Source: Escherichia phage vB_vPM_PD06
DNA: 64,000 nt
Sequence record: NC_052653.1
Reading direction: 5' to 3' (one strand)
Each line of letters opens with the position of its first letter. The stretch's first letter is position 1. A model generated the notes under the pieces. It did no database searches. It saw only the letters and a list, made by a program, of their open reading frames with translations, and was not told where the DNA came from. Shown one piece after another: positions 1-24,654 of the stretch. The translations under genes and the position numbers were made by a program.

Positions 1-465
1 GAACTTAACCGTTATCCTAATGACAAATTCTCTGATGCACTTGCATTAATGGGTATCAGTATTACTGAACACGGCTATGCTGCAAAAGAAGTTAAACTTC
101 TGAAAGTTAACGGTGTAGATCGTACAGCAGATGTTTCGTCAGATACCGATATTGACGGTATGACAGCACAAGGTTTGTTTAGCGGTAATCGTTATGTTGT
201 AGCTGTAGATCATAAGTCAGGAGAAGAGCATCTTCCTGAAATGGAAGGGATTGTTACCGTAGAAGATAAAGATGAAGAAGGTGACTACTACTGGGGTGTA
301 GACCGTATCTTGCTAACGTATGATGAAAAACACATTCGTACAATGGGTGGTGACGGTTATCACTTTATGTTCACCGATGATAAAGGTAACAACATTGAAG
401 TTGTTATTAAAAACAAAGAACGTAAAAACTACACAGAGTATGTGTTTGGTGGTCGTTCTTACTAA
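1..465 (+). CDS. hypothetical protein, 5' end outside window
   Basis: Reading frame is open from position 1 and continuous with the listed ORF 49..465; no recognisable motif. Confidence 0.45.
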   Translation, partial: ELNRYPNDKFSDALALMGISITEHGYAAKEVKLLKVNGVDRTADVSSDTDIDGMTAQGLFSGNRYVVAVDHKSGEEHLPEMEGIVTVEDKDEEGDYYWGVDRILLTYDEKHIRTMGGDGYHFMFTDDKGNNIEVVIKNKERKNYTEYVFGGRSY

Positions 466-474
466 GTGATAAAA

Positions 475-497
475 GGAGGCGAAAGCCTCCTTTATTT
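475..497 (+). terminator. putative rho-independent terminator
   Basis: Inverted repeat GGAGGC-GAAA-GCCTCC followed by TTTATTTAT, directly after the stop at 465. Confidence 0.5.
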
Positions 498-499
498 AT

Positions 500-703
500 A
501 TGGAGGGTATTATGGATCATTATTTTGTTTTTAAAGATAAAGTTGATACAGCAGGTGGTCACGTTGCTAAAAATGATCGTGACATTAAAGAAGTATTAGG
601 AGATCTGATTAACATTTTAGAACAAAAAGAGTTGCTTTTAGATAAGGATATTGCTAGACTTCTTGGTGTGGGGACAAGTGATATACAAAGATTACCATTC
701 TAA
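500..703 (+). CDS. hypothetical small protein
   Basis: ORF track; GGAGGG lies 3 nt before an internal ATG at 512, so the true start may be 512. Confidence 0.35.
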   Translation: MEGIMDHYFVFKDKVDTAGGHVAKNDRDIKEVLGDLINILEQKELLLDKDIARLLGVGTSDIQRLPF

Positions 704-872
704 AGGGGAAGAAAATGCTTACAGATGATGAATATAAAGCTATCCAGGAAAAACTAACGGAGCTTGAAACTCTTGCTGCAAATCTTAAAGATCAATCACA
801 TGCTGGAAAGTTACTACGTCAAGAGATTAATAAAATTAAGCAGATGATATTCTTTTGGACGGAGGATTAAAA

Positions 873-1529
873 ATGACTGTTAAGCATATTTCTTTTGATG
901 TATGGAATACTCTTATTACTGCTAATCCTTTGTATGCAGAAGAACGCAACAAGGTTATTGCCGAGTATACCTCTTGTTCTGAGGCAGAAGCAGCTACCGT
1001 ATATAAAGAGGTAAAAACTCTCCTGGATTTAAAAGCAGAAAAAGGCGTTTGTGGAACGTCTAGGAATGCTTGGGAAACACTTTCTACTCGTTTGAACATT
1101 GATCTTGATAAGGTGGATGGATTAAAAAGAGACTGTTTAGCAATGTTTATAAAACATCCTCCAATATTGAACCCTGAGCTTTGCAAGAAGTTGGAAGAGC
1201 TAAGTTCAACCTATTCTTTGAGTATTAAGAGCAATACTAATTTTGTACCAGGTAGTTTCTTAGCTGTATATTCTGGCTTAACAAAATTACCATTTGACTT
1301 TATGCATTTTTCTGATGAGTTTTGCTTGTGTAAACCAGATCCTAGGTTTTTTAAACTCTCTTTTGATGAAATGGTAACGTTTGATCTCGCACCAGAGGAG
1401 ATTTTACACGTTGGAGATAGTTTGATCTATGATGGAAAAGCTGTTGACATAGGGATGAAGTTCTGTCATATTATTAATCCAGAAGATTTGTTGGCTAAAC
1501 TTAAAAAAGAGGAACTTATTAATGCGTAA
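873..1529 (+). CDS. HAD-superfamily-like hydrolase/phosphatase
   Basis: GGAGGA RBS at 861-866 before ATG 873 (listed ORF starts at 855). N-terminal FDVWNTL resembles HAD motif I (DxDGTL-like); C-terminal HVGDSLIYDGKAVDIG resembles HAD motif IV. Confidence 0.5.
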   Translation: MTVKHISFDVWNTLITANPLYAEERNKVIAEYTSCSEAEAATVYKEVKTLLDLKAEKGVCGTSRNAWETLSTRLNIDLDKVDGLKRDCLAMFIKHPPILNPELCKKLEELSSTYSLSIKSNTNFVPGSFLAVYSGLTKLPFDFMHFSDEFCLCKPDPRFFKLSFDEMVTFDLAPEEILHVGDSLIYDGKAVDIGMKFCHIINPEDLLAKLKKEELINA

Positions 1530-2379
1530 TCAAATTCAACATTTTGCTAATACTTTTACTAACCTGAAGGAAGCAAAATTTAACATTGCAGATTATTCCA
1601 AACTAAAGTTTGGTAGTAACCAGGCAGCAAAAAGAATGGGACGCATTCTGGCTGAAAGTTTCTTTTCTAAATATGAAGAACGACTAGTAAATGAAAGTTT
1701 TGTTGTTATTCCATCTCCATACAACTATGTGAAAAATGCAGCTACAGTGTTATCTGAACATTTTGTAGATCACCTCAACTACCTAATCTCTATCAAAGGA
1801 GGTAAAGCAGTAGAGTGGGATATCGTTCATCGTAAAGTGAGTTATATCAATGATTATGGATTTCTTAGCAAAGAAGATCGTAAGGCTTTGATCGATGGTG
1901 ACACTTTCTCTATCAATCGTGATTTCTGGGGTAATAAAACTCTGATTTTCATTGATGATGTTAATATTACAGGAACACACGAAGAAAAACTTATTGAAAT
2001 TTTAGACAAAGAAGGTGTTGAAAACGATACGTTTTTCCTGTACTTTGCAAAGTATGAAGGTACAGAAGCCAACACCGAAGCTGCGCTTAACTTCAACTAT
2101 ATCAATAACTTGGCAGCTTTTATTAAAATGATTAAGCAAGAAACTGATGCTAAATGTTTGGTTCGTCCTATTAAGTATCTAATGAGTCAAAGCGAAGTTG
2201 ATTTTAAAATTGCACTTTCACAACTTCCTTTGTATTATGTAGAACAACTGTTCTTTGGTTGCCTTGCAGAAGGTTACAATAATATTGAAAAATACAAAGA
2301 GAACTTTGATTTCCTGCGTCAATTTTTTGAAAGCAACATTATCAACAAATCTAATGTTAAAGGGGATTATTATGTCTAA
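1522..2379 (+). CDS. phosphoribosyltransferase-fold protein
   Basis: TLIFIDDVNITGTH matches the PRPP-binding loop of type I phosphoribosyltransferases (hydrophobic run, DD, then T-G-T). Start overlaps the upstream stop by 8 nt. Confidence 0.55.
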   Translation: MRNQIQHFANTFTNLKEAKFNIADYSKLKFGSNQAAKRMGRILAESFFSKYEERLVNESFVVIPSPYNYVKNAATVLSEHFVDHLNYLISIKGGKAVEWDIVHRKVSYINDYGFLSKEDRKALIDGDTFSINRDFWGNKTLIFIDDVNITGTHEEKLIEILDKEGVENDTFFLYFAKYEGTEANTEAALNFNYINNLAAFIKMIKQETDAKCLVRPIKYLMSQSEVDFKIALSQLPLYYVEQLFFGCLAEGYNNIEKYKENFDFLRQFFESNIINKSNVKGDYYV

Positions 2380-3088
2380 TAAAGTGACGACTTTCGGAGA
2401 TCCTATCACCAATATTACAGAAAAAGATTTTGGGCGTGTAGCAACAGATAAAGATGGTGTCTTAAGAATTCGTGTACAAGGCATTACAGCACAGGATGAA
2501 TATGCTGTGTATGTTTCAGGTCTTAATTATATTGATGATCGCATTACACAAAACTTTGCACTGATCGGTGGTGTAGAGAAAATGTACTGGGAAGATGAAA
2601 TTGTAACAAGTTATCCAGCAGGTATCATTGAGGTACACGGTGATCTTTTAGCAGCAGCCGAGAGAGGCGATATAGACGCTATAGCACACTGCTGTAACTG
2701 TTTTTGCACTATGGGTAGTGGTATTGCACCAAAAATTAAAAGCAAGTGGCCTGGTGCGTTTAAAGCAGATTGTGCCACTAAGCGTGGTGATTATAAAAAA
2801 TTAGGTACGTTTACTAAGTATACAGAAAACAATTTGACAATTTATAATTTATATGGACAATATGGTTATAGTCGTCGTGAGGAAGGTAAGCGTGACCTGA
2901 ATTATGAAGCTATCTACAATGCGTTAGATAGTATGGGAGACGATGTTGTATCTTCAGGCGGTAAAATTGTAGGTTTACCAATGCTTGGTTGTGGTTTGGC
3001 TGGAGGTTCTTGGAATATTGTAAAACTTATGATCGAAGAAACTCTAGTGAACAAAGGTTTAAATGTAATTGTTTACAAACTGAAATAA
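2372..3088 (+). CDS. macro-domain protein (ADP-ribose binding/processing family)
   Basis: Start set at internal ATG 2372 (listed ORF 2255 overlaps the upstream gene). AIAHCCNCFCTMGSGIA and GKIVGLPMLGCGLAGGSWNIV resemble the two glycine-rich macro-domain loops. Confidence 0.5.
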   Translation: MSNKVTTFGDPITNITEKDFGRVATDKDGVLRIRVQGITAQDEYAVYVSGLNYIDDRITQNFALIGGVEKMYWEDEIVTSYPAGIIEVHGDLLAAAERGDIDAIAHCCNCFCTMGSGIAPKIKSKWPGAFKADCATKRGDYKKLGTFTKYTENNLTIYNLYGQYGYSRREEGKRDLNYEAIYNALDSMGDDVVSSGGKIVGLPMLGCGLAGGSWNIVKLMIEETLVNKGLNVIVYKLK

Positions 3089-3097
3089 GGAGAAAGT

Positions 3098-3304
3098 ATG
3101 GCAGGTGTTTTAGCAGTATTAGGTTGTTTTATTGTTGTATTCTTGATTGTGTTAATCCCTAGTTGGCTACTGCTTTTAGCATACAACTATATGATTGACA
3201 TTATCGGTTTAGACTGGCATCATGTTCCTGTAACGTTTTGGAGTGTAGTCTGTGTGACGTTCATTCTTGCGGTACTTCGTGGTATCTTTCAATCTAACAA
3301 ATAA
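3098..3304 (+). CDS. small membrane protein, two predicted transmembrane helices
   Basis: 68 aa, two long hydrophobic stretches; RBS GGAGAAAG upstream. Confidence 0.4.
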   Translation: MAGVLAVLGCFIVVFLIVLIPSWLLLLAYNYMIDIIGLDWHHVPVTFWSVVCVTFILAVLRGIFQSNK

Positions 3305-3318
3305 GAGAGGATCTTTAT

Positions 3319-3567
3319 ATGCGTAAAGTAAATGTTGAAGTGCTTGAAAAATTTAAAAACACTCGTGATTGTACTATTGGTAAGGTTTATGAGGCTATTC
3401 TCCTTGAAGATGGAGATATTGTTCCTGCCCCGTATCACGCCTTTAATGGTCAGGTTAGCAAAGTGGAAGGTGGTCTTGCTGTTTGCTTTATTGATGATGT
3501 AGGTGATGCTGTAGCTTTCCCTATCATTAACAAAGAAGATAAACTTAAAATTACAGAACTGAACTAG
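3319..3567 (+). CDS. hypothetical protein
   Basis: ORF track; RBS GAGAGG upstream. Confidence 0.4.
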   Translation: MRKVNVEVLEKFKNTRDCTIGKVYEAILLEDGDIVPAPYHAFNGQVSKVEGGLAVCFIDDVGDAVAFPIINKEDKLKITELN

Positions 3568-3595
3568 TTGACTTTCTTTAAAAACAGTTTATAGT
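3568..3595 (+). promoter_or_regulatory. sigma70-like promoter (TTGACT, 16 nt, TATAGT)
   Basis: -35 TTGACT at 3568-3573 and -10 TATAGT at 3590-3595; followed by a hairpin GCGGAGG-ATTGT-CCTCCGC at about 3607-3626 in the leader of the TerC-like gene. Confidence 0.45.
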
Positions 3596-3644
3596 ATACG
3601 ACATATAGCGGAGGATTGTCCTCCGCATTAAAGAGGAGAAAAGA

Positions 3645-4622
3645 ATGCAACTGGGTTTCCCAATTATTGATGTGGTTGTTTTAGTGGGTATTTTAGTCTT
3701 GTCGATTTGTATTGATTTCTTCGGACACAGAGAAAACAAAGAAATCTCATTTAAATCTGCAATTGGCTGGTCAATTTTCTGGATTGGGGTATCATTAGCC
3801 TACTATGGTTTTGTATACTTCCAACACGGTGCTGATTTCGCGAGCTTGTTCTTGAGTGGGTATGTGTTGGAGAAATCTCTTTCTGTAGATAACTTAGTAG
3901 TATTTGTGGCAGTATTCGCAAGTTTTGGTATTAAAAGCACACACTTGCAACACAAGATTCTACTTTGGGGTATTGCAGGTGCGATTGTCTTCCGAGGTGT
4001 GTTTGTAGCAGTAGGCACTTACTTGTTGAGTTTGGGCTGGTATGTTAATATCTTCTTCGGTGCTGTCATCCTTTTCTGTGCAGCTAAAATGGTATTCGCT
4101 GGAGATAATGACGCAGAAGTTGATTACTCTAAACACTGGGCTACTCGCATTGTTCGTAAGCTGTTCCCTGTATCTGATCAGATGGATGGTGAGAAGTTCT
4201 TCACAATCAAAAATGGTGTTCGTGTAGCAACTCCTGCATTGGTTTGTGTGTTTGTAATGGAAATGGTTGACGTAATCTTTGCAGTAGACTCTGTTCCAGC
4301 AGTAATTGCAGTGACACAAGAACCTCTGCTTGTATTTTCTTCAATGCTGTGTGCAATTTTAGGTCTACGTGCTCTGTTCTTTGTCCTTAGTGTTGCACTG
4401 AAATATTTGGTTCATCTGGAGAAAGCAGTTATCGTAGTCCTGGTATTTGTGGGTGTAAAACTGATGTATCACCCGTTTGCAGAAACTCTGCACGCAAAAG
4501 TGAGTTTCCTGCCAGCACACATTGATCCGACGATCAGTATGTATATTGTGTTAGGTACTCTGGGGCTGGGTGTTATTGCAAGTTTAATCTTCCCTGAAAA
4601 AGAAGACCAGGCTGTTGCTTAA
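3645..4622 (+). CDS. terC: TerC-family integral membrane protein
   Basis: Polytopic membrane protein of 325 aa containing SVDNLVVFVAVFASFG and a second acidic-then-hydrophobic block (EMVDVIFAVDSVPAVIAV), as in TerC-family proteins; RBS AAGAGGAG. Confidence 0.6.
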   Translation: MQLGFPIIDVVVLVGILVLSICIDFFGHRENKEISFKSAIGWSIFWIGVSLAYYGFVYFQHGADFASLFLSGYVLEKSLSVDNLVVFVAVFASFGIKSTHLQHKILLWGIAGAIVFRGVFVAVGTYLLSLGWYVNIFFGAVILFCAAKMVFAGDNDAEVDYSKHWATRIVRKLFPVSDQMDGEKFFTIKNGVRVATPALVCVFVMEMVDVIFAVDSVPAVIAVTQEPLLVFSSMLCAILGLRALFFVLSVALKYLVHLEKAVIVVLVFVGVKLMYHPFAETLHAKVSFLPAHIDPTISMYIVLGTLGLGVIASLIFPEKEDQAVA

Positions 4623-4630
4623 TTCATTAA

Positions 4631-4650
4631 GCCCCTTCGGGGGCTTTGTT
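4631..4650 (+). terminator. rho-independent terminator
   Basis: GCCCC-TTCG-GGGGC hairpin followed by TTTGTT. Confidence 0.55.
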
Positions 4651-4661
4651 GAGGTGATCTG

Positions 4662-4868
4662 ATGGTGGTTTTACGTGTTCTTTGGATTCTGTTTGAAAAT
4701 ATTTGTTTTGCTTTAGGGTTATTTTGTTTGATTTTTATCTTGACAACATACATTGATAACCATACAATTACTATCAACAGGAACGGAGAACAGATGTATT
4801 GTTTCTCTAGGGATTTTAAAAATTGTGTCGAGACTTTAAATGAGAGGGTTACAAATGAAAAACATTAA
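4662..4868 (+). CDS. hypothetical small hydrophobic protein
   Basis: ORF track; hydrophobic N-terminus; GAGGTG precedes the start. May be spurious. Confidence 0.3.
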   Translation: MVVLRVLWILFENICFALGLFCLIFILTTYIDNHTITINRNGEQMYCFSRDFKNCVETLNERVTNEKH

Positions 4869-5445
4869 ATCTTTTATTGTTGCAGTTGTTTTAGGTAGTG
4901 CATTGCTGGTAGGTTGTGATGATTCTGAAAATGTACAAAACCAACGTTACCAACAAACACCAAATCAGATGGTAGATGAACAATATGTAAATCAACCTGC
5001 ACCTCAAGTTGTTCAAGCAGCACCTGCACAACCTTCAACAGTTGTTGTGCAAGGAGGCGGTAGTGGTTCTTCTGGTGTAGGTGAATTTGCTACAGGTATG
5101 CTTCTTGGTCATATGTTGAGTGGTAATAGTGGCGGTGGTGGTTATAGAGATGGCGGTAGCAATACAACAATTATTAATAACAACGCTGCTCCTACAACTA
5201 ACAGTAAATCATATACAACACAAAAGCATAGTTTTTATGATAAACAAGGGAATACATATACAACAACTAAACAAAACACAATTAAGCAGCAAAGTGTACA
5301 AACGTATTCACGCCCATCAACAACAAAAGTGAATAGTGATTACTCTGCTCGTAAGTCTTACTCAAGCCCTATTAGCTCTTATAGTAAGTCTTCGAAAAGT
5401 TATTCTTCGTCGAAACGTAGTTTTAGTAGCTCACGTCGTCGTTAA
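4855..5445 (+). CDS. predicted lipoprotein with Ser/Tyr/Thr-rich low-complexity tail
   Basis: Start set at MKNIK (4855). Signal peptide ending in lipobox LLVGC, then Gly-rich and S/Y/T/K-rich sequence ending SSSRRR. Confidence 0.5.
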   Translation: MKNIKSFIVAVVLGSALLVGCDDSENVQNQRYQQTPNQMVDEQYVNQPAPQVVQAAPAQPSTVVVQGGGSGSSGVGEFATGMLLGHMLSGNSGGGGYRDGGSNTTIINNNAAPTTNSKSYTTQKHSFYDKQGNTYTTTKQNTIKQQSVQTYSRPSTTKVNSDYSARKSYSSPISSYSKSSKSYSSSKRSFSSSRRR

Positions 5446-5480
5446 TAATTTAATACAGATTAAATAAGAAGGAGAAACAG

Positions 5481-6332
5481 ATGAAACTAGAAGTTGGTAA
5501 AGTGTATCGCCTGGAAGGTTGGATCTTTAATCAAGAAATTCTTGAGAAGAATAAAGATGGTTTTGAGTTTGTTGGTACTACCAAAGAAAGTATGCACGAT
5601 GACGAATACTGTAAATTCGTTGGTAAAAATACAGGTCAAGAACAATTTTGCTTTAAAAGCGCAATCGGTGATTATGCTTCTGTAATGCCAACGCCAGAAA
5701 AAACTTCGAAACAATATACTGTCTTTGGTGTAAAACTTGAAGAGCTTGTAGAACACCCACGTTTTGAAGAGTTTAAGGTTGCTGCAATGTGCAAGCATTC
5801 TGAAATTAAGATACATAATTTGTTTGATTTAGAAGATCGGTTTGATATCTTTATGTATGATCGCAGGGGAAAGCATTTTGATGCAACGACTTCAAAATTT
5901 GCTGCAACAGAGGATATTAAAATCCTTGATGTTGATACCTTTCTTGAGAGTGTATCGTTTGTATTCATTCCTAAATACAAAAAACGTAGTGATCATAAAC
6001 GTGTGAAAGGAACTCCTCGTAAAAAACGTACTGTAAACAAAGCAACTTTGCACTTCACTTCTGGTGATAAATATACTCTCAAAGGGTTTGAAAGTGTTTT
6101 GTATGATGCGGGAACGGGTAATATCAAGTTTATCATTAAGGCAACCTACAAAGGTACGGTATTGCACGAAGAGGCTGTTACACTACCTGTATTCGATATC
6201 TCTCGTGTTGAGGTACGGGGTGTTAAAGAGTCCTTCGATCTGGATTTCTTAACCACTAATGCTACTGGTTATGTTAACCTGGAAGCAGATGGAGCATTTA
6301 TTACTACAAATTATTTAGATATGTTTGTTTAA
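5481..6332 (+). CDS. hypothetical protein
   Basis: ORF track; RBS AAGGAGAAAC; no motif recognised. Confidence 0.5.
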   Translation: MKLEVGKVYRLEGWIFNQEILEKNKDGFEFVGTTKESMHDDEYCKFVGKNTGQEQFCFKSAIGDYASVMPTPEKTSKQYTVFGVKLEELVEHPRFEEFKVAAMCKHSEIKIHNLFDLEDRFDIFMYDRRGKHFDATTSKFAATEDIKILDVDTFLESVSFVFIPKYKKRSDHKRVKGTPRKKRTVNKATLHFTSGDKYTLKGFESVLYDAGTGNIKFIIKATYKGTVLHEEAVTLPVFDISRVEVRGVKESFDLDFLTTNATGYVNLEADGAFITTNYLDMFV

Positions 6333-6400
6333 TACTTAATTTGTGTTATGATGGTGGTACAGAGGTATCACCATCTACTAAAGAATATGGAGGAAATTGA

Positions 6401-7504
6401 ATGTCCAGTCCTTTTATCAGTGCCGTAAAAAGCAAACCGTCTGAAACGAGTGTATTCACGGCAACAACAGAAAAAAGTAAGTCTTTGTTTGCTCCAAGTG
6501 CTATGGATGCAAGCCCTGTATATGCCCCTGCTGTTGCACGACCTGTACAAATGCTGCCTCCAATGTCTCGTGAAGAGATTGAACAGGTTGGTGCTGATGC
6601 AGGACTTACTCTTCGTAACCTTAATGCGGAAGTGCTTAAACACCAGCGTTCATCTCAGGGAGATGAAATGAGTGAGCGTTTAACCGCACTTATTAAGCAA
6701 GCAAAGCAACTTGATCCTAATTCTATTAAACAATCTAAAGGTTTAGGTAAGCTAGTTAAGAAAGTATTAGGTATGAAAGAAGATTTGTTTGGAGAATTTG
6801 ACACCATCAATAATCGTATTGAAGGTTTGGTAAAGACACTCCAAACAGACTTGAAAAAAGAAGAAGATTCTTTACGATATCTGCAACGTTTAGAAGAGGC
6901 TATTGCAAAATATGCTCTTAGCTTAAACAGGGATATAGAGCTTCTAACAGCTACTTATGAAAAAGAAGAAGTTCACCTTAATACACTACCTGAAAATGAA
7001 GTAGAAGAGCGTCAACGTACTCGTGATACTATGGATCTGCTTGAAATTCGTATTGCAGACCTGAAAGCCTTGCGTTTACTGTGTGTTCAGATGGGGCCAC
7101 GTGTACAAAGTATGCAGAAAGTATCTGCAAGTTTGATGCGATCAGCCCGTAATATTGTGAATAATGTTATTCCTGCTTACTCTGCAAACTTTTCTATGTA
7201 TATTGAAAGTCTACGCCAGAAGAAAGCAGCCGATACACAGAACAATGTACTGAATGAATTTAATGCTGCTATTGCAATGGGTAGTGATCTGGCTGCACAA
7301 AACCAAATTGAAGCTACACAACTTGCTAATCGTCAAGTATTGGATATTGAGACATTACGTCGCGATCAAGAAAACTTAGTTAAAATGTTGGAAGAAACTA
7401 ATCGGATCAACACTGAAGCCCGTGCTGCTCGTATTGATTACATTCAAGAAGTGCAATCTCTTGAAGATGGTATGATTCAAACTGTTAAACGTGGTCTACT
7501 TTAA
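6401..7504 (+). CDS. TelA-like (toxic anion resistance family) protein, tentative
   Basis: 367 aa, largely helical/coiled-coil sequence of the size expected for TelA/KlaA proteins; call rests mainly on co-location with TerC-like, TerD-like and vWA genes. Confidence 0.4.
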   Translation: MSSPFISAVKSKPSETSVFTATTEKSKSLFAPSAMDASPVYAPAVARPVQMLPPMSREEIEQVGADAGLTLRNLNAEVLKHQRSSQGDEMSERLTALIKQAKQLDPNSIKQSKGLGKLVKKVLGMKEDLFGEFDTINNRIEGLVKTLQTDLKKEEDSLRYLQRLEEAIAKYALSLNRDIELLTATYEKEEVHLNTLPENEVEERQRTRDTMDLLEIRIADLKALRLLCVQMGPRVQSMQKVSASLMRSARNIVNNVIPAYSANFSMYIESLRQKKAADTQNNVLNEFNAAIAMGSDLAAQNQIEATQLANRQVLDIETLRRDQENLVKMLEETNRINTEARAARIDYIQEVQSLEDGMIQTVKRGLL

Positions 7505-7517
7505 GGAGAAATATATT

Positions 7518-7724
7518 ATGAATATTAAAATTTACAAACTGTCTGGTTCTATGATCGCTGTCCAGTACGACAATGAAGATCGTTATGTTCTCCTCCAGGA
7601 TGCTTGGTTAGATGATCCTAATGTATTTACTGTCCTGCGAGAACTACGTTCTGTCTATACCTATTCTTCTAAAGATGGTTTTGATAGTTCAACGATGGAT
7701 TTGGTAAAAGAGGAGAATGTGTAA
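7518..7724 (+). CDS. hypothetical small protein
   Basis: AGGAG RBS before internal ATG 7518 (listed ORF 7491). Confidence 0.4.
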   Translation: MNIKIYKLSGSMIAVQYDNEDRYVLLQDAWLDDPNVFTVLRELRSVYTYSSKDGFDSSTMDLVKEENV

Positions 7725-7927
7725 TGAATAAAGATATTCACTTAACTCGTGAAGAATTACAAACCATTATGGAAGATGCTTTCATTGATGGTTGGAAACA
7801 ATGTCAAGAGTCAAATTGGTATGATGCCGAAAACTTTTTGTATTATCATATGACTGCACCTGTAGACGAGCCAACACATTCTGAAACAACTTTGGCCTTA
7901 ATTGATCTTAAGGCTGGTGTATTTTAG
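7724..7927 (+). CDS. hypothetical small protein
   Basis: ORF track; AGGAG at 7711-7715. Confidence 0.4.
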   Translation: MNKDIHLTREELQTIMEDAFIDGWKQCQESNWYDAENFLYYHMTAPVDEPTHSETTLALIDLKAGVF

Positions 7928-8011
7928 TTGTAACTATCTCTTTAAACGAGTTACAAAAGATCACCAGAGAGGCTTTCTATTTAGGCTGGAGGGCAGGTAA
8001 AGGAGAAGACA

Positions 8012-8281
8012 GTGCTTAAATTTAATATCAAAGACGATAAATCAGATGAACCTAAATGTTTTGGAGAACTTGACGCAGGTGATACATTCGTATATTATGT
8101 TGCGTATCAAGATTCTGGTTTAGATACGTTCAGAAACTTAGTGTTTATTAAAGTTAATACAAACCAAGCAATGTGTCTGAACGGTTCACAAAGAGGTCAA
8201 CTTAGCTGTATTTCATATGATACAGAAATGGTAGAAGTGGATTTAGAAGTTACTAACATTACACTCAGAAAGGAGAAATAA
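8012..8281 (+). CDS. hypothetical small protein
   Basis: GTG start with AGGAG at 8001-8005. Confidence 0.4.
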   Translation: MLKFNIKDDKSDEPKCFGELDAGDTFVYYVAYQDSGLDTFRNLVFIKVNTNQAMCLNGSQRGQLSCISYDTEMVEVDLEVTNITLRKEK

Positions 8282-8282
8282 T

Positions 8283-9077
8283 ATGTCCAATAAAATCAGT
8301 CTTAAAAAACGTCAAGAAACTCTTACTGTATCTCTGCGTAAGAAAAAGATTAACGATGTTGTTCTTCGTGTCGGTAGCGCCTTAGATATTTCGGGTAGTA
8401 TGTGTGAGCTGTATCGTGATGGCACTGTTAGTGATTTTGTAGGTAAACTGCTGCCGTTTGGTATGAAGTTTGATGACAATGCACAGATTGACATGTGGGC
8501 TTTCAATAGTTCTTCTTTTGAACTGCCTCCTGCAACGGCTGATGTGTATGATGATTATGTCGGCTCTTGCATGTCTAATGTTTGCATCAACGGTGGTACT
8601 GCTTATGCTCCAGTAATGCAAGAGATCTATGATACATACTTCGGTAGTGTACCTATGAAAAATATTACACGCGAAGTCGTTGAGTATGAAGAAGTCCCGG
8701 CTAAGGGTTTCCTTGCTAAACTAACTGGTAAAAAAGAACTTGTAGAAGTAACACGTACTATTGTAGAACAGGTTGTAGATACTGATGCACAAGTTGATCG
8801 TACTCCTGCAATGATTTTCTTCCAAACTGACGGGGAAAACATGGATACTTCAGCAGTACGTAGCTTACTGAACAAACACCGCAATACGCCTGTTTACTGG
8901 TTTATGGTTGGTGTAGGTAATGCAAACTTTAAATTCCTGAAAGACTTGGCAAAAGAGTACGATAATGTTGATTTTATCGGTATTGCAGATTTGTCCTTGT
9001 CTGATGAAGAACTTTACGATAAACTGTTATCCGAAGAGTTTGGTGAGTGGGTTAAAAAATTCGGAGCAAAAGCGTAA
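8283..9077 (+). CDS. von Willebrand factor A (vWA) domain protein, TerY/TerF-like
   Basis: MIDAS-like DISGSM (DxSxS) near the N-terminus, downstream threonine-containing and acidic blocks; N-terminal ISLKK..VSLRKK echoes the start of the TerD-like protein. Confidence 0.55.
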   Translation: MSNKISLKKRQETLTVSLRKKKINDVVLRVGSALDISGSMCELYRDGTVSDFVGKLLPFGMKFDDNAQIDMWAFNSSSFELPPATADVYDDYVGSCMSNVCINGGTAYAPVMQEIYDTYFGSVPMKNITREVVEYEEVPAKGFLAKLTGKKELVEVTRTIVEQVVDTDAQVDRTPAMIFFQTDGENMDTSAVRSLLNKHRNTPVYWFMVGVGNANFKFLKDLAKEYDNVDFIGIADLSLSDEELYDKLLSEEFGEWVKKFGAKA

Positions 9078-9084
9078 AAAACGC

Positions 9085-9112
9085 TTGACTTTGTAGAAAA
9101 GATTAGTAAAAT
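9085..9112 (+). promoter_or_regulatory. sigma70-like promoter (TTGACT, 16 nt, TAAAAT)
   Basis: -35 TTGACT at 9085-9090 and -10 TAAAAT at 9107-9112, upstream of the TerD-like gene. Confidence 0.4.
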
Positions 9113-9149
9113 AGACAACGTAAATTAACAACAAAGGAGATAATAAATT

Positions 9150-9746
9150 ATGACTCAGAAAATTTCCCTGAAAAAAGGTTCTAGCGAAAAAGTTTCTCTG
9201 AAAAAGATCGCACCAGCACTGAAACGCATTCGTCTGGAATTCTCTTGGAAATCTAACGAAAAACTGGATCTGGATGTTAGTGCTCTGATTTGCCGACACA
9301 ATGCATCTGGTCTGCCGGAACTGTTGTCTCCTCGTCACCTGGTGTGCTACGCGCAGAAATTTGATCCTGAACGTTCTACTTTTGCAGGTGAAGATGTTCG
9401 TGATGGTGTAGGACAGATGGAGCAGATTGATGTTACACTGGATAATATCTCTGCTGAAGCACAGGAAATTGCATTCGTAATTACTATTGATGACGAAACG
9501 GGTAAGAAACGCCTTGGTCACGCTACCGAAGGTTTCCTTAAAATCTTCGATGATGAACGTAATGTTGAACTGCTGGACTTTGACTTCTTGGCTCCAGAAC
9601 TTGCAGGTAACACCATTTGCCACGTTGCCTCCCTGGTGCGAGAAGATAGCGAATGGAAACTGAAAGCGTATGGTGTAGGTAAAGCTGGGCTTGACATTTA
9701 CGATGTAGTTAAAGCGTTTGGCGCTGGCGACGATTGGTTCGAGTAA
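9150..9746 (+). CDS. terD: TerD-domain protein
   Basis: N-terminal ISLKKGSSEKVSLKK, LDLDVSALIC and acidic clusters (FAGEDVRDGVGQMEQIDVTL) match the TerD/TerZ/TerE fold pattern. Codon usage is conspicuously CTG/CGT/CCG/GAA-rich compared with neighbours. Confidence 0.7.
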   Translation: MTQKISLKKGSSEKVSLKKIAPALKRIRLEFSWKSNEKLDLDVSALICRHNASGLPELLSPRHLVCYAQKFDPERSTFAGEDVRDGVGQMEQIDVTLDNISAEAQEIAFVITIDDETGKKRLGHATEGFLKIFDDERNVELLDFDFLAPELAGNTICHVASLVREDSEWKLKAYGVGKAGLDIYDVVKAFGAGDDWFE

Positions 9747-9767
9747 TACGTCAAGTAATAAATCATA

Positions 9768-9790
9768 GCGCCCTTCGGGGCGCATATTTT
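9768..9790 (+). terminator. rho-independent terminator
   Basis: GCGCCC-TTCG-GGGCGC hairpin followed by ATATTTT. Confidence 0.55.
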
Positions 9791-9810
9791 AAATAAAAGA
9801 GGAGAAAACA

Positions 9811-10413
9811 ATGGGTATTACTTTAGAAGGTCAAAAACTTATTCGTAGCGGCAATTTTCTTGTAGATATTGACAACAATGAAGATTATGCTTTAGAAGTT
9901 AGTGATGTGCTGTTTGATGCTTTGCAGTCTGGTTTCAATTTTGAAGTTTATGAAGTAATCCGTGGAACTAAACTCAGAGAAACCCTTGGATCATCTAGTG
10001 ATGTTTATCCGGCAATCTGGCAATATTTCGGGTTGATGGAGGGTAAGACATATCTTACTGATAGTTATTCTGAAGATGTTGTTTATCTTGATATGGAAGA
10101 GTTTCGTCGTCTGTTCAAAAGTGAAGAAAATGAAGAAGAGGGTGAACTTTTTGAAGGAATTACTCTCGAAGGTAATGTTGAAATTGTGTACAAAGCAGGA
10201 AAAACATTCCACCTACGCGAAAACGGTAAAGCAAAAGTTGATTTTGTAAACAAGACAGTGACAACTGAACATAATTATCTTAAAGATGGTCAACCAGCTT
10301 TTGAGCGTGTAAAAATTAAATTTAAAGTGTTGTCTGCACTAGTTACGGATCAAGAACGTATTGATTTTGTAGAAGATGGTGTAGTAACTCATACAAAGGT
10401 TTACAATATCTAA
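9811..10413 (+). CDS. hypothetical protein
   Basis: ORF track; RBS AGAGGAG. Confidence 0.5.
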   Translation: MGITLEGQKLIRSGNFLVDIDNNEDYALEVSDVLFDALQSGFNFEVYEVIRGTKLRETLGSSSDVYPAIWQYFGLMEGKTYLTDSYSEDVVYLDMEEFRRLFKSEENEEEGELFEGITLEGNVEIVYKAGKTFHLRENGKAKVDFVNKTVTTEHNYLKDGQPAFERVKIKFKVLSALVTDQERIDFVEDGVVTHTKVYNI

Positions 10414-10505
10414 CAGAGTGTAAGAGGGGGATAATCCCCCTCCACTTGCAAAATAGCCTCTTCTGTGTTACAATAAAAGTTCGTTTAACAAAATAGGAGG
10501 CAAGT

Positions 10506-11015
10506 TTGTCAATAAAAACCTTTGTCGCAATTGCGTTACTATCCTTAACTGCTTTTACATTTACACCTGTTGTGGCGCAAGCCGAAGCTGCAAACGTAAA
10601 AACTGCTAAAGTAGTTCACAAGTGTACAAAGCGTGATAGTAAAGAAAATCTATTAGCTTGTGCAATCTATGCAGAAAGTCGTAATCAAGGAAAGCGCGGT
10701 ATGTCTGCTGTTGGTAATGTAGTATTGAATAGGGCTAGAGATTCATATTTCCCTGATACTATAAAAGAAGTTTTGTTTCAGAAAGGACAATTCTCTTACA
10801 CGAAGACATTCAACGTTATGGAACACGATAAGTGGAAGGAAGCTAAGGCTATAGCAGAACGTCTACTTTATCTCGATAACCATTTTCCAGAACTACGAAT
10901 TGCATTAGATATTACAAAAGGAGCATTATACTTTAAAAAATCTACAATAAGAGCACACTGGGAAAAAGATATGGTTCTAGTGTACCGCTACAAAGAACAT
11001 CAATTCTATCGCTAA
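10506..11015 (+). CDS. secreted SleB-type cell-wall hydrolase; endolysin candidate
   Basis: TTG start after AGGAGG; N-terminal signal peptide (AFTFTPVVAQAEA); CAIYAESRNQGKRGMSAVGNVVLNRA and QKGQFS resemble the SleB/Hydrolase_2 family. Confidence 0.55.
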   Translation: MSIKTFVAIALLSLTAFTFTPVVAQAEAANVKTAKVVHKCTKRDSKENLLACAIYAESRNQGKRGMSAVGNVVLNRARDSYFPDTIKEVLFQKGQFSYTKTFNVMEHDKWKEAKAIAERLLYLDNHFPELRIALDITKGALYFKKSTIRAHWEKDMVLVYRYKEHQFYR

Positions 11016-11025
11016 GGAGATATAG

Positions 11026-11304
11026 ATGAAAGATGGCGTTATCGTTGCAAGTTATCTTGTTATTGGTCTTACAGAAGAGGATGTACATTACATTAGGAAA
11101 CATTTAGAACAGTTTGCAATGATGTTCATCGAAGACGAAGACAATGTGGATGTTTATTCAATTGAAATGATCAATGATAACGTCTATCCTTGTATAGCTT
11201 TACGAGTCGATGAAGATGTTTGGGAACGTTTTTCACGTAGTCACGATAATGTTGAATGTTCTATGGTTATGTCACAAAACAACATACTGGGAGTGTTACA
11301 CTGA
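11026..11304 (+). CDS. hypothetical protein
   Basis: ORF track; RBS AAGGAG. Confidence 0.4.
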   Translation: MKDGVIVASYLVIGLTEEDVHYIRKHLEQFAMMFIEDEDNVDVYSIEMINDNVYPCIALRVDEDVWERFSRSHDNVECSMVMSQNNILGVLH

Positions 11305-11534
11305 TGGCTGATGTTATTGAAGTTAACTTTAAAACAAAAAAGAAAGTTGATAAGTATACAATCTTAAAAAATATTTGCGTTGTGTGCTTCAATTCTGTAA
11401 TATATGACTCACGTAAGGGCGAAGATGAAAATGAACCTTACATCCAGATTTCTAAAGGTAAAGGGCAGTGTATCTGCAAAAACTGTGCTGTAGCAATTAA
11501 GGAGGTTGTAGATGAAAACCATTGGGATCAATGA
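11304..11534 (+). CDS. hypothetical Cys-rich small protein (possible zinc ribbon)
   Basis: Start set at internal ATG 11304; contains CVVC and CICKNC pairs. Confidence 0.35.
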   Translation: MADVIEVNFKTKKKVDKYTILKNICVVCFNSVIYDSRKGEDENEPYIQISKGKGQCICKNCAVAIKEVVDENHWDQ

Positions 11535-11706
11535 TACTGGTGAAGTTGTAAAATCTTGGGATGATCTTAGTGGTATCCCTACAGATAAACTGATTAAACT
11601 GCGTGATGTTTGTCGTGATCATCTTAATGAAACATATAAAGAGTATATGGAAGCACGAGATCACAGTTTAGCTATCCAAATGGAACTCGCAAAACGTAAT
11701 CAATAG
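11512..11706 (+). CDS. hypothetical small protein
   Basis: ORF track; RBS AAGGAGG. Confidence 0.4.
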   Translation: MKTIGINDTGEVVKSWDDLSGIPTDKLIKLRDVCRDHLNETYKEYMEARDHSLAIQMELAKRNQ

Positions 11707-11763
11707 GTAAAACCATTTGGACTTTTTAGTCTAAAAATGCTAAAGTAATAATACGGAGGGAGT

Positions 11764-12327
11764 ATGATATTTCACATAACTCCCTATCTTTCTGGAGATA
11801 TTGGAAAAGGTATCAATGACACAATAAGTGTCTTACCAGAAGATAGTTGGATTTGCCTAAGAGACATTGATACAATGTTTCTTCTTCCAGAACAACCTGC
11901 TTGGTTGGAATCAATAGTCCGTTCAAATCCTGATTTTGATGTTCTTGGTGCATCTTGTAATAGATTGGGATCAACATATCAATTATTTAATAATGAAAGA
12001 AGTGAAGATCCAAATATATTACACCACATTGAGATTGCAAAAAGAGCACATCTAGAATGGGGAAACTCAATAGAGGAAGTACCTACAGATGCTATCTTAG
12101 CAGGATTCTTTCTTCTCTTTCGTAAGAGTCTGTGGAATGAAATCCCTTTTGAGGAAAGATCAATACAGTTTGATATAATTTTCTCTAAAGCATTACACGC
12201 TAACAATAAAAGGCTAGGTTTACTACGTGGGTTATATTTATTTCACACATACCGTTTAGGTAATGATGATCCTAGAAAAGCTGTTTCACACCTTTTACAT
12301 TGTCAAGACATGAATAAAATTATTTAA
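11764..12327 (+). CDS. hypothetical protein
   Basis: ORF track; RBS GGAGGGAG. Confidence 0.45.
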   Translation: MIFHITPYLSGDIGKGINDTISVLPEDSWICLRDIDTMFLLPEQPAWLESIVRSNPDFDVLGASCNRLGSTYQLFNNERSEDPNILHHIEIAKRAHLEWGNSIEEVPTDAILAGFFLLFRKSLWNEIPFEERSIQFDIIFSKALHANNKRLGLLRGLYLFHTYRLGNDDPRKAVSHLLHCQDMNKII

Positions 12328-12336
12328 GGAGTTATT

Positions 12337-13023
12337 TTGGAAAATACAAAAATTGGTGTTGGTGTTATTACTGTAGGTAAGCGTCCTCTTAAAGATTATC
12401 TTGTGACTGATCCTAATGCTACTTTTGTTGTGCAGTATGATCGGGAACGAAAAGGTGTTGCATATGCCCGTAATGAACTGATGAAAAAGTTTTATGATGA
12501 AGGGTATGATTACTGGTTTATTTTTGATGATGATTGCTATCCGGTTGTGCCAGGTTGGGAAACATATTTTGTAAAACAGGCTAAGGAAAATGGTTGGGAT
12601 TTCTTTGGTATGCCTGAATATTTTAAAGATAAAGTAAAAGGTATTGAGGGTGAAGTGGTTATTTGGGAACTAGGTATGTGTCAGTTTGGTATGTATTCCC
12701 GTGCAGTTATTGAGAAAGCTGGCTATTTCCGCTCATACACCCACGGTTATGGATATGAAGATGCAGAGTGGATTCAGCGCGTTCCACTGGCAGGTTTGAA
12801 CCGAGGTATTCAGGGCGTACCATGTCCTATTCGAATTATGGCGTTTATCCATCCTGACGATGTGTTTGGAGATAATCCTTTACCTTTTGCGAATCTGTCA
12901 AAAGAAGAGAAAGAACAGGGGATTGGTGTAAACTGGGAACAATATAAACAATCACTGGAGGATCTTCGCAATGGTAAAACTTTTATCTCTTATGAGGAGG
13001 CTCAAAAATATGGTAAGTGCTAA
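12337..13023 (+). CDS. hypothetical protein, possible DXD-type glycosyltransferase
   Basis: TTG start with AAGGA RBS; DYWFIFDDDCYP could be a DXD motif. Weak call. Confidence 0.3.
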   Translation: MENTKIGVGVITVGKRPLKDYLVTDPNATFVVQYDRERKGVAYARNELMKKFYDEGYDYWFIFDDDCYPVVPGWETYFVKQAKENGWDFFGMPEYFKDKVKGIEGEVVIWELGMCQFGMYSRAVIEKAGYFRSYTHGYGYEDAEWIQRVPLAGLNRGIQGVPCPIRIMAFIHPDDVFGDNPLPFANLSKEEKEQGIGVNWEQYKQSLEDLRNGKTFISYEEAQKYGKC

Positions 13024-13984
13024 TACTCCTGTACTTAAGTGTGATAATAAGTTAGGCAGTGGTTGTGATTACCATCGTATTGTAATGCCGTTTGCGGGAA
13101 ATACGTTCAAACCTAAGAAAGACGTTTTAGTTTTTAATAGAGTGTACTCTCGTGGATCAGACGAGGTTAAACGCCTGAAGGCACAAGGTGTTAAGATTAT
13201 TGTTGACTTAGATGACTTTTATTCACTTAATCCTGAACATTATATGGCTGGCGTATTTACTAATCACTCAAAGACTATTGTAGAGATGGTTAAGTTAGCA
13301 GATGTTGTTACAGTAACAACAGAATACCTGGCTTACAAAATTCGTCATTTAAACCGTAATGTTGTCGTTATTAGAAACGCACTACCTTACGACGAAGGTC
13401 AATTTACTTTGACAAAAGACCGTTATTCTGACACGCCTATTATTTGGGCTGGAGGAGCAAGCCATGAACCTGATTTATCTCTTGTAGCTAATACATTTGA
13501 TGATACACTATTGACAATTGCAGGGTATGAAGTGTATCCTTCTGCACCTGTTGGAAATAATAGTCAGTATCTAACTACTGCGGAGTGGGTTAAAATAAAA
13601 CGTAAAATTCCAAATGCACAGTATAAACCAGCTATTAAAAATTTAGGTGAGTATATGTCTGTGTATGACGGTCACAGTATTGCAATTGCTCCTCTGGTAG
13701 ATAATGACTTCAACAACTGTAAAAGCAATTTGAAGATTTTGGAAGCAGGTGCAAAGGGTCTTCCTATTATCTGTTCTCCTGTGCTGCCGTACTTCAATCC
13801 GGTAGATGCAAAGGCTGTTATTTATGCAGACTCTAAAGCATCTTGGCATTATGAAGTTGTCAAGCTAATGAGGAACCCTAGATACACAGAAGATCGTGGT
13901 ATGATGCTTGCAGAACACGTTCGTCTTAATTATAATCTTGCAGATGCCAATGAACTGCGTCGTCAAGTTATTGAAAGTCTTTAA
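13010..13984 (+). CDS. glycosyltransferase-like protein, paralog 1
   Basis: Start set at ATG 13010 (GAGGAGG RBS). Shares blocks with the next gene (CDYHRIVMPF vs CDFHRIILPY; IAPLVDNDFNNCKSNLKILEAGAKGLPIICSP vs IAPLVNNHFNNAKSNLKILEAGAKGLPLVCSP); the last block resembles the C-terminal E..G motif of GT-B glycosyltransferases. Confidence 0.45.
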   Translation: MVSANTPVLKCDNKLGSGCDYHRIVMPFAGNTFKPKKDVLVFNRVYSRGSDEVKRLKAQGVKIIVDLDDFYSLNPEHYMAGVFTNHSKTIVEMVKLADVVTVTTEYLAYKIRHLNRNVVVIRNALPYDEGQFTLTKDRYSDTPIIWAGGASHEPDLSLVANTFDDTLLTIAGYEVYPSAPVGNNSQYLTTAEWVKIKRKIPNAQYKPAIKNLGEYMSVYDGHSIAIAPLVDNDFNNCKSNLKILEAGAKGLPIICSPVLPYFNPVDAKAVIYADSKASWHYEVVKLMRNPRYTEDRGMMLAEHVRLNYNLADANELRRQVIESL

Positions 13985-13995
13985 CAAGGAGCCAT

Positions 13996-24617: not shown

Positions 24618-24629
24618 GATAAAAGAAAA

Positions 24630-24654
24630 GGAGCCAATAGGCTCCTTTTTGTTT
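24630..24654. terminator. bidirectional terminator between convergent early and late arms
   Basis: GGAGCC-AATA-GGCTCC hairpin flanked by an A-run upstream and a T-run downstream; separates the last plus-strand gene (ends 24617) from the first minus-strand gene (ends 24653). Confidence 0.55.

Follow-up and report, generated by a model that had tools for sequence, protein, structure and literature searches.

Few bacterial genes for stress and defence whose mechanism is still to be found are as widespread as the Ter (tellurite-resistance) genes. Here we describe a block of Ter-like genes at positions 873-9746 of a 64,000-nucleotide stretch of Escherichia phage vB_vPM_PD06 (NC_052653.1), which is called the window below, and we compare this block with systems described previously. 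The closest of these are the phage Ter systems of Iyer, Anantharaman, Krishnan, Burroughs and Aravind (2021; Viruses 13:63, PMC7824862), including a version with a phosphoribosyltransferase (PRTase) and a HAD enzyme in Acinetobacter phage vB_AbaM_ME3. In the model of these authors, a nucleoside or nucleotide signal is produced by the PRTase and HAD enzymes and detected by TerB and TerD, transport across the membrane is changed by TerC, and TelA and TerF-vWA build structures beneath the membrane; phages were suggested to use Ter against superinfecting phages. Both the existence of phage Ter systems with these two enzymes and the idea of superinfection exclusion are already published.

The block resembles the systems of ME3 and the Caulobacter jumbo phages in its PRTase, HAD, TerD, TerC, TerF-type vWA and TelA genes, in being carried by a virulent tailed phage, and in the role proposed for it, competition with superinfecting phages. 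It differs in that the phage here, at ~147 kb, is not a jumbo phage (PMC7824862 mentions 'related smaller tailed phages' only briefly), in that all components are contiguous, whereas the HAD-PRTase genes of CcrColossus lie about 28 kb from TerD, and in that a macro-domain gene, a lipoprotein gene and lineage-specific open reading frames (ORFs) are interleaved.

Among lytic phages, published descriptions report terC, terD, terF and telA in phiKp34 and in Pseudomonas phage phiPsa374, and four tellurite-related genes in the phAPEC8-like Klebsiella phage ZCKP1, for which colicin resistance and superinfection exclusion were suggested. ZCKP1 belongs to a sister genus and carries an orthologous block. 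These phages are like the one studied here in having TerC, TerD, TerF-vWA and TelA together, and their authors cite colicin and phage resistance; in the relevant passages of these papers the tellurite-type genes are mentioned but the pair formed by the HAD gene and a PRTase gene of the PRTase_3 family is not. A metagenomic study lists gp172, gp173 and gp178 of phage phi92 as TerD and tellurite-resistance genes. The tellurite-resistance, phage-inhibition and colicin-resistance phenotypes that are cited in this field come from terZABCDEF (IncHI2 plasmid R478, E. coli O157 island), and ter determinants were linked to phage inhibition and colicin resistance by Whelan 1995 and Taylor & Summers 1979 (cited in PMC8386662, PMC6141743 and PMC9796965).

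The block encodes a phage-lineage version of the Ter system

Region 873-9746 matched 90 phage records, in 51 of which a single matched stretch covered at least 80% of the query. The best matches were 99% identical (Enterobacteria phage ECGD1, Escherichia phages W22, SD2 and PHB05, and phi92 relatives), and a phage of the BASEL set, JohannJBalmer, has been placed in Stephanstirmvirinae, Justusliebigvirus; because of these matches and this classification we assign the window, on its sequence, to a phi92-like virulent myophage of E. coli (Justusliebigvirus). The genes of the block are already annotated in GenBank and discussed in papers: several matched records name them "tellurite resistance protein", "tellurium resistance protein TerC" and "phosphoribosyltransferase", and further labels are "macrodomain protein", "HAD-like superfamily protein" and "vWA domain protein". 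All lie on the + strand, at the coordinates given in an initial annotation made from the letters of the window, and are as follows:

873-1529, + strand: HAD-superfamily hydrolase of a Ter-linked clade (PF00702, NCBIfam HAD-IA matches, PHROG 14393, motif alignment)
1522-2379, + strand: PRTase_3 (ComF-like) type I phosphoribosyltransferase (PF15610, invariant motifs, AF2 model, Foldseek)
2372-3088, + strand: macro-domain protein of the SCO6735 / BT1257 / TARG1 / DarG-like class (PF01661, PDB matches, DarG models)
3098-3304, + strand: small two-helix membrane protein (68 aa), at the same position in phAPEC8-like phages
3319-3567, + strand: 82-aa protein (PHROG 17459)
3645-4622, + strand: TerC/Alx-family polytopic inner-membrane protein of a metal-export family (PF03741, TIGR03718)
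4855-5445, + strand: lipoprotein with lipobox LLVGC and Asp at +2 (translation, PHROG 21570)
5481-6332, + strand: 283-aa lineage-specific protein
6401-7504, + strand: TelA-family all-helical protein (PF05816, 118 bits)
7491-8281, + strand: three small ORFs of 77, 67 and 89 aa (PHROGs 26823, 14200 and 11278)
8283-9077, + strand: vWA-TerF-like protein with MIDAS motif DISGS (PF10138, 133 bits)
9150-9746, + strand: TerD-domain protein (PF02342, 98 bits; alignment to PDB 2kxt and 3ibz)

The initial annotation had proposed the HAD, PRTase, macro, TerC, lipoprotein, TelA, vWA and TerD assignments, and profile searches, with the lipobox in the case of the lipoprotein, upheld all of them; the motifs that it quoted (LIFIDDVNITGTH, DISGSM, SVDN, GCGLAGG and the lipobox LLVGC) were each present in the translations. 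TerC scored 133 bits with PF03741 and 322.8 bits (cut-off 246.4) with TIGR03718, the TerC/Alx 'metal homeostasis membrane protein' model, and has about 8-9 hydrophobic segments. TerD scored well above the PF02342 cut-off of 25.3 bits and aligned end to end with the PDB TerD structures. The acidic Ca-binding run GDNRTGEGDGDDE of Klebsiella TerD corresponds to GEDVRDGVGQME in the phage protein and is partly degenerate, with three acidic residues lost from the GDGDDE run that is prominent in Klebsiella. The structure model of TelA was of low confidence (pLDDT 56.6) and consisted of long helices; used as a Foldseek query, it matched only generic helical bundles, none at E<=0.001. TelA, the vWA protein and the 283-aa protein have no membrane segment.

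TerB and ATP-grasp enzymes occur in many Ter clusters, not all; the gene-neighbourhood definition of the Ter system is reportedly that of Anantharaman, Iyer & Aravind in 2012. The block contains TerD, TerC, TelA, a TerF-type vWA protein and linked PRTase and HAD enzymes, and neither TerB nor ATP-grasp gave a Pfam match in the ORFs from 49 to 12327, among which a very divergent version in the ORFan proteins is possible. It is therefore a Ter system in two predicted parts: a cytoplasmic HAD and PRTase_3 unit, and a membrane-associated set made up of TerC/Alx, a coiled-coil TelA, a vWA-TerF-like protein with a MIDAS motif and a TerD beta-sandwich. It is not a classical terZABCDEF operon, as judged by gene set, several TerD paralogues, TerB and close similarity. 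TerC, a TerD-family protein and TerF-vWA are common to both, but the phage has one TerD, no TerB was found, its TerD is at most about 31% identical to plasmid-borne relatives, and PRTase_3 was not found on enterobacterial plasmids.

The plasmid comparison covered TerD-family proteins found on 2,246 plasmids, and it led us to reject recent capture from a host ter operon; the low TerD identity and the lack of PRTase_3 on enterobacterial plasmids indicate, therefore, that the module is an old phage-lineage version. Recognisable bacterial TelA proteins were only about 20-27% identical to phage TelA, and for both the PRTase and the TelA of the phage, the closest homologues lay overwhelmingly on phage-sized or phage-like contigs. 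This divergence from the host operon, as read from the sequences, is a modest addition of the present work.

The initial annotation would have been weakened if the genes were not conserved together in related phages, and they proved to be: phAPEC8, of the sister genus Phapecoctavirus, and phages like it have the same gene order, namely HAD, PRTase, macro, small membrane protein, TerC, lipoprotein, a relative of the 283-aa protein, TelA, vWA, TerD and endolysin. Amino-acid identity to phAPEC8 was 50% for both HAD and macro, 65% for PRTase, 67.8% for vWA, 71.6% for TerC, 78.5% for TelA and 80.8% for TerD, with the Ter proteins and the endolysin equally conserved. All dN/dS values against phAPEC8 were below 1 (0.08-0.29 for the domain-assigned genes), at saturated dS. 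The block is ancestral to the subfamily Stephanstirmvirinae.

The family membership of TerC bears directly on function. Below we favour, tentatively, protection of the infected cell's envelope; a competing explanation is metal homeostasis, in which TerC/Alx would export Mn2+ or another divalent cation or load secreted proteins, TerD and the vWA MIDAS would buffer cations, and metal levels in the infected cell would be adjusted to suit enzymes of the phage, for example the anaerobic ribonucleotide reductase (RNR) encoded nearby, and not to defend the envelope. The TIGR03718 score, the intact MIDAS motif, the RNR genes directly upstream in related phages, and published work that describes Alx as exporting Mn2+, deals with metal chaperones of the TerC family and connects Klebsiella TerC with zinc resistance all agree with it. 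However, it leaves the recurrent linkage to HAD-PRTase_3, TelA and vWA unexplained, and the acidic Ca-binding run of TerD is degenerate; we regard this explanation as unlikely, though not negligible.

The HAD-PRTase_3 pair, its Ter linkage and the macro gene

The HAD gene overlaps the start of the PRTase gene by 8 nt at its stop codon. Its product scored 25.6 bits with the Pfam 'Hydrolase' model PF00702, just under the cut-off of 26.4, and matched several HAD-IA NCBIfam models, every one below its own cut-off (TIGR01428 weakly). The nucleophile Asp, motif II Ser/Thr, motif III Lys and motif IV acidic pair are all present, and in the 30 loci aligned the motifs FD9VWNTL, SNT, K (in CKPDP) and GDSLIYD are conserved. 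The Asp two residues after the nucleophile (Asp+2) is the general acid/base in HAD phosphatases and mutases, and dehalogenase-type HADs carry an aromatic residue there. In motif I of the phage protein, FDVWNTL, the nucleophile (D9) is retained and Asp+2 is replaced by Trp, and the same held for the HAD partners of PRTase_3 in phages and bacteria (the window and loci L002-L030), which read FD[VLF]W.TL with the Trp invariant. Because this invariant Trp occupies the general-acid position in all aligned members, the label "phosphatase" is not secure for the Ter-linked clade. The Asp-x-Trp motif is a small new point of modest weight, drawn from the alignment.

The PRTase scored 143.5 bits with PRTase_3, and its loop for phosphoribosyl pyrophosphate (PRPP) is intact (IFIDDVNITGTHE), with D145, D146, T150 and G151 invariant among 65 homologues. 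Structure prediction, which the initial annotation had proposed as a check, supports the assignment: the AF2 model (pLDDT 92.4) has a type I PRT core with an additional C-terminal helical domain. The protein has no close relative of known activity, and sequence searches of the PDB gave no useful match, but Foldseek with the model returned 43 PDB matches at E<=0.001, and those listed were all of the PRT fold (HGPRT, PyrR, ComF, OPRT and one ppGpp-bound hypothetical protein). Identity to the HGPRT, PyrR, ComF and OPRT structures was 8-18%, and the additional C-terminal helical domain kept TM-scores down to 0.3-0.5. The modelled fold is that of a type I phosphoribosyltransferase with a Rossmann-like core. 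A literature search found nothing on PRTase_3 itself.

One explanation for the pair is nucleotide salvage, with the PRTase recycling a base for phage DNA synthesis, the HAD enzyme acting as a nucleotidase, and both unrelated to the Ter genes. The pair is often found among nucleotide-metabolism genes: RNR genes lie upstream here, and adenylosuccinate-synthetase-like, NT5C, DHFR and metallophosphatase genes lie near the pair in other phages. Nevertheless, a phosphatase after the PRTase would reverse salvage, PRTase_3 is remote from characterised salvage enzymes (the 8-18% identity given above), and linkage to Ter genes is repeated across lineages, so that we find salvage extremely doubtful.

This linkage was examined in 46 partly redundant HAD-PRTase_3 loci from cultured Rhizobium and Caulobacter phages, metagenomic phage contigs, bacterial genomes or metagenome-assembled genomes (21 loci) and IMG/VR contigs (17). 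The HAD gene lay directly upstream of PRTase_3, usually overlapping it, in 45 of the 46, and this strict pairing is a modest addition of the present work. In 17 of the 46, Ter genes (TerD, vWA-TerF, TelA or TerC) lay no more than 10 kb from the pair, in varying orders, and Ter-linked pairs occurred in unrelated viral contigs of 150-350 kb (L005, L008, L034, L037, L039, L041 and L045). The order was TelA, vWA and then HAD, PRTase and TerD in L034; TerC, vWA, TerD, TelA, HAD and PRTase in L037; and TerC, TerD, vWA, HAD and PRTase in L041.

The likeness to bacterial Ter neighbourhoods that the initial annotation had noted was borne out by the chromosome of Pedococcus sp. KACC 23699 (L030), where the order is TelA, TerD, TerD, DUF475/TerC, vWA-TerF, TerD, TerD, HAD, PRTase_3 and PRTase_3. 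The same set of TelA, TerD, TerC-like, vWA-TerF-like, HAD and PRTase_3 genes is thus present, with the same HAD Asp-x-Trp motif; Pedococcus differs in its four TerD paralogues, two PRTase_3 genes, DUF475-type TerC and gene order, and identity to the phage proteins is low (32% in the best PRTase segment). In comparative genomics, linkage that is kept through rearrangement, here in both phages and bacteria, is the usual sign that genes serve a common function. Functional linkage of the pair with Ter genes is credible on this gene-neighbourhood evidence; from it and from the conserved order in phAPEC8-like phages we also conclude that the genes of the block are not grouped by chance.

This argument is limited by the largely phage-borne nearest relatives and low bacterial TelA identity noted above, and by pairs with no Ter gene nearby, in Rhizobium phages, several large viral contigs and rhizobia. 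On rhizobial plasmids and chromosomes (L011-L024; for example L021, Sinorhizobium terangae, 8834-11591), the pair is flanked by a 151-aa ORF on one side and a gene for a ClpP-like protease on the other, and these islands have a HipA-family toxin gene nearby and no Ter genes within 10 kb. In phage contig L006, a Clp protease gene lies ~1.4 kb upstream of the pair.

The initial annotation had treated the whole block as one Ter-like module. The domain set stood up, and so did the linkage except in the case of the macro gene, which appears to be independent of the Ter set. Its product scored 31 bits with PF01661 (cut-off 22) and matched PDB entries 5e3b and 2fg1, TARG1 and DarG; the closest solved relatives are Streptomyces SCO6735 (E-value 1.8e-15), Bacteroides BT1257, human TARG1 (2.8e-10) and DarG. 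The protein shares its GCGLAGG loop with SCO6735 and BT1257, and it may carry Gly-Gln and Ala at the catalytic Lys/Asp positions of TARG1/DarG, as SCO6735 does. GenBank relatives of the gene start at about 2354, and the protein has an N-terminal extension of ~85 aa that is shared by only about 70 phage records. Relatives of the macro domain were found in 2,907 phage records, compared with 154 for PRTase_3 and 141 for TerD, and include T4-like phages (gene Tk.4; PHROG 335) and FelixO1-like and Pseudomonas phages. Outside Stephanstirmvirinae, no HAD-PRTase/Ter locus had an adjacent macro gene, and one distant copy was found in L034. Because of the record counts and this absence, we do not count the macro gene in the Ter set; by sequence it is of the T4 Tk.4 / PHROG 335 kind, which occurs widely and independently in phages, and it probably encodes an independent de-ADP-ribosylase with its own role. 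Placing it outside the Ter set is a modest addition of this work.

The phage protein shares its macro domain and class with the T4 Tk.4 type, SCO6735, BT1257, TARG1 and DarG. It differs from DarG in its N-terminal extension and in lacking the C-terminal DarT-binding part: DarG models matched the macro part only (positions 3-147 of a 338-position model, at 50 bits where 250 is the cut-off), and the neighbours are the PRTase and small membrane protein genes, not darT. It does not, by these features, qualify as a DarG antitoxin.

These results bear on a counter-defence explanation, in which HAD, PRTase and macro would form a three-enzyme unit acting on NAD+/ADP-ribose immune signals or marks (of DarTG, Thoeris or other NADase systems) and Ter adjacency would be incidental. 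In phi92-like phages each of these genes adjoins or overlaps the next, the macro domain is similar to those of DarG, TARG1 and SCO6735, and a role in degrading ADP-ribose signals has been proposed for phage macro domains (PMC7824862). In contrast, nearly all of the macro-bearing phage records are without PRTase_3, HAD-PRTase_3 loci outside the subfamily have no macro gene beside them, and in bacteria the pair is linked to Ter genes, as in Pedococcus. In addition, PRTase_3 has a type I fold, from which Nampt-type enzymes differ. Neither PRTase_3 nor HAD matched any PADLOC model; in the PADLOC search the macro protein matched DarG, and no Ter, PRTase or HAD protein was matched. We consider such a unit quite unlikely.

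Proposed function of the Ter block

The initial annotation had left the choice among host takeover, counter-defence and superinfection exclusion, and this is where the evidence stands. The reading that we prefer, as a tentative one short of even chances, is that a metabolite-regulated Ter assembly would protect the envelope of the infected cell and exclude superinfection. Host RNA polymerase would transcribe the Ter block soon after infection, a base-like acceptor would be coupled to PRPP by the PRTase, and the product would be turned into a nucleoside-like metabolite by the HAD enzyme. This metabolite, with divalent cations, would act on TerD, vWA and TelA at the inner membrane face, beside TerC. 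The assembly would keep the envelope sealed and energised and would thereby shut out pore-forming colicins and superinfecting phages up to the time at which the phage itself lyses the cell. The phenotypes of plasmid ter determinants, phage inhibition and colicin resistance, are of this kind. The adjacent macro protein would act separately, stripping ADP-ribose marks or signals.

Predicted localisation fits envelope protection: TerC is polytopic, TelA, vWA and the 283-aa protein are without a membrane segment, and the lipoprotein has Asp at +2, which is an inner-membrane retention signal in E. coli. Also in its favour are the domain identities, the conserved gene order in phAPEC8, the pairing of HAD with PRTase_3 and its Ter linkage, the intact PRPP loop and type I fold of the PRTase, and the promoter-like sites on the coding strand. 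The phage-specific small membrane proteins and the putative inner-membrane lipoprotein sit among the membrane-associated Ter set. The lipoprotein is low-complexity and rich in Q, N, S and G, with an N-terminal hydrophobic segment and a basic C-terminus; its ORF is open from 4840, and PHROG 21570 aligned from residue 6.

Several observations weigh against this reading. A literature search found no experimental test of any phage Ter gene. The Trp at the phosphatase Asp+2 position of the HAD enzyme makes the step in which a phosphatase makes a nucleoside uncertain, the acidic run of TerD is partly lost, and the block yielded neither TerB nor ATP-grasp genes. In many phages HAD-PRTase_3 is present but the 10 kb around it contain no Ter gene (Rhizobium phages, L006, L038, L040, L042 and L046); therefore, the pair can work without Ter proteins close by. 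The phenotypes of the R478 ter genes may not transfer to a system so distant from the plasmid TerD proteins, with a PRTase_3 that enterobacterial ter plasmids lack. Finally, the total of promoter-like sites, given below, was not above that expected from shuffled sequence.

The same anatomy would also suit an abortive-infection guard, in which the main task of the membrane assembly would be to resist suicide effectors of the host that act by perforating or depolarising the inner membrane, and so to buy time for the phage cycle. The literature attributes resistance to pore-forming colicins to ter determinants, which agrees with such a guard; the idea is otherwise pure inference, and we think it very unlikely.

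A more specific proposal concerns the enzyme pair. HAD(Asp-x-Trp)-PRTase_3 might be a dedicated synthase of a ribosylated small molecule that switches the phage TerD/vWA/TelA/TerC membrane assembly, which would then block entry of competitor DNA or neutralise membrane-targeting suicide effectors. We give this little credence, at about the level of the three-enzyme counter-defence unit. If the pair were such a synthase, and not a nucleotidase/salvage couple, the phage would own a small-molecule signalling system built from parts of a bacterial defence system.

The Ter block itself will be no surprise to a specialist, but the mechanistic question is genuine and the phage is a good model for it. 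A compact, single-copy Ter set in a tractable, easily grown E. coli phage could be a convenient system for identifying the PRTase-HAD product and the roles of TerC, TelA, vWA and TerD, and the BASEL collection includes phages closely related to it, such as Bas62 JohannJBalmer.

Transcription signals, interleaved ORFs and flanking genes

The Ter block sits in the replication/early arm of the phage, behind sigma-70-like promoters. The candidate signals are:

3568-3595, + strand: sigma-70-like promoter TTGACT-16-TATAGT upstream of terC, with the -35 element conserved in phAPEC8
3608-3626, + strand: terC leader hairpin GCGGAGGA-TTG-TCCTCCGC, between the -10 element and the ribosome-binding site
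4740-4768, + strand: sigma-70-like site TTGACA-17-TACAAT (11/12, best in the region), upstream of the lipoprotein gene
9085-9112, + strand: sigma-70-like site TTGACT-16-TAAAAT upstream of terD, not conserved in phAPEC8
9768-9783, + strand: GC-rich hairpin GCGCCC-TTCG-GGGCGC followed by a T-rich tail, after terD

In total, 46 promoter-like sites were found, compared with 40.5 +/- 6.3 in shuffled sequence, and we therefore rejected the promoter scan as statistical evidence. The nine sites with at least 10 of 12 matches all lie on the coding strand, three of them in intergenic gaps, and the depositors of phAPEC8 annotated a host-dependent promoter upstream of terC; the position and conservation of individual sites are suggestive. 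The hairpin at 9768-9783 is likely, from its sequence, to be a terminator that closes the block. Given the promoter-like sites in the gaps and this hairpin, the block probably consists of co-oriented early or middle genes in several transcription units and not of one operon.

At the place of the terC leader hairpin, phAPEC8 has GCGGGGA...TCCCCGC (about 13596-13614 of its locus, L002), with one compensatory pair change. This conserved hairpin is a small new point of modest weight, from the comparison of the two leaders. Bacterial TerC/Alx genes are often preceded by a riboswitch. The leader here had no Rfam match at gathering level, and a permissive scan gave noise only; we rejected a riboswitch of the yybP-ykoY type, as the leader is too short, no Rfam family matched, and only a simple conserved hairpin is present.

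Among the interleaved ORFs, those of 68, 82, 283, 77, 67 and 89 aa belong to no family beyond phage-only PHROGs. The 283-aa protein had no Pfam, NCBIfam or PDB match and few relatives (2 by indexed search, 17 among 1.84 billion representative proteins); marginal PADLOC matches to Cas12g (E about 0.003-0.006) were dismissed. A 187-aa gene (PHROG 14928) that lies between the 67-aa and 89-aa ORFs in JohannJBalmer (L001, 10049-10612) and in phAPEC8 is absent here, at 7927-8012, which accounts for a length difference of ~467 bp in megablast matches. The minus-strand ORF at 9027-9785 (252 aa), antisense to terD, was rejected as a non-coding artefact, given the strong family matches on the coding strand and the positive GC skew throughout the arm.

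In relatives, the + strand arm begins with anaerobic RNR genes just upstream of the block. The 138-aa ORF at 49-465 is not a separate gene; it is the C-terminal piece (residues 249-387) of a 386-aa gene of related phages, cut by the start of the window. Downstream, the arm carries endolysin, glycosyltransferase, primase-helicase, family A DNA polymerase and DNA methylase genes. Between terD and the gene for the endolysin there is a 200-aa ORFan (9811-10413; PHROG 22473) that phAPEC8 lacks; it had no Pfam, NCBIfam or PDB match, and weak relatives were seen only in two viral contigs (L033 and L037). We treated it and the 283-aa protein, on the basis of these searches, as lineage-specific ORFans. 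The endolysin gene itself, downstream of the Ter block at 10506-11015, encodes a cell-wall hydrolase of the SleB type (72 bits with Pfam Hydrolase_2; endolysin PHROGs) with an N-terminal hydrophobic signal-like segment, and a promoter-like site (10446-10474) precedes it. A run of glycosyltransferase-like genes follows at 11764-14940, one of which weakly matched a TET-associated glycosyltransferase (PF20691, 23.3 bits, below the cut-off); their products could modify the cell surface or DNA.

At ~24300-24650 (about 24.5 kb), gene orientation and GC skew both flip, and the + strand replication/early arm gives way to large genes on the minus strand, which are probably structural. The minus strand at 62883-63598 carries a cluster of tRNA genes, six in all (Ile-GAT, Met-CAT, Leu-TAG, Phe-GAA, Pro-TGG and Gln-TTG). 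Lastly, four records named 'Campylobacter phage' with Campylobacter jejuni as host (MG065639, MG065645, MG065656 and MG065689) are 98.3% identical to the block of this E. coli phage, and on this identity they are probably mislabelled or contaminant phi92-like phages.

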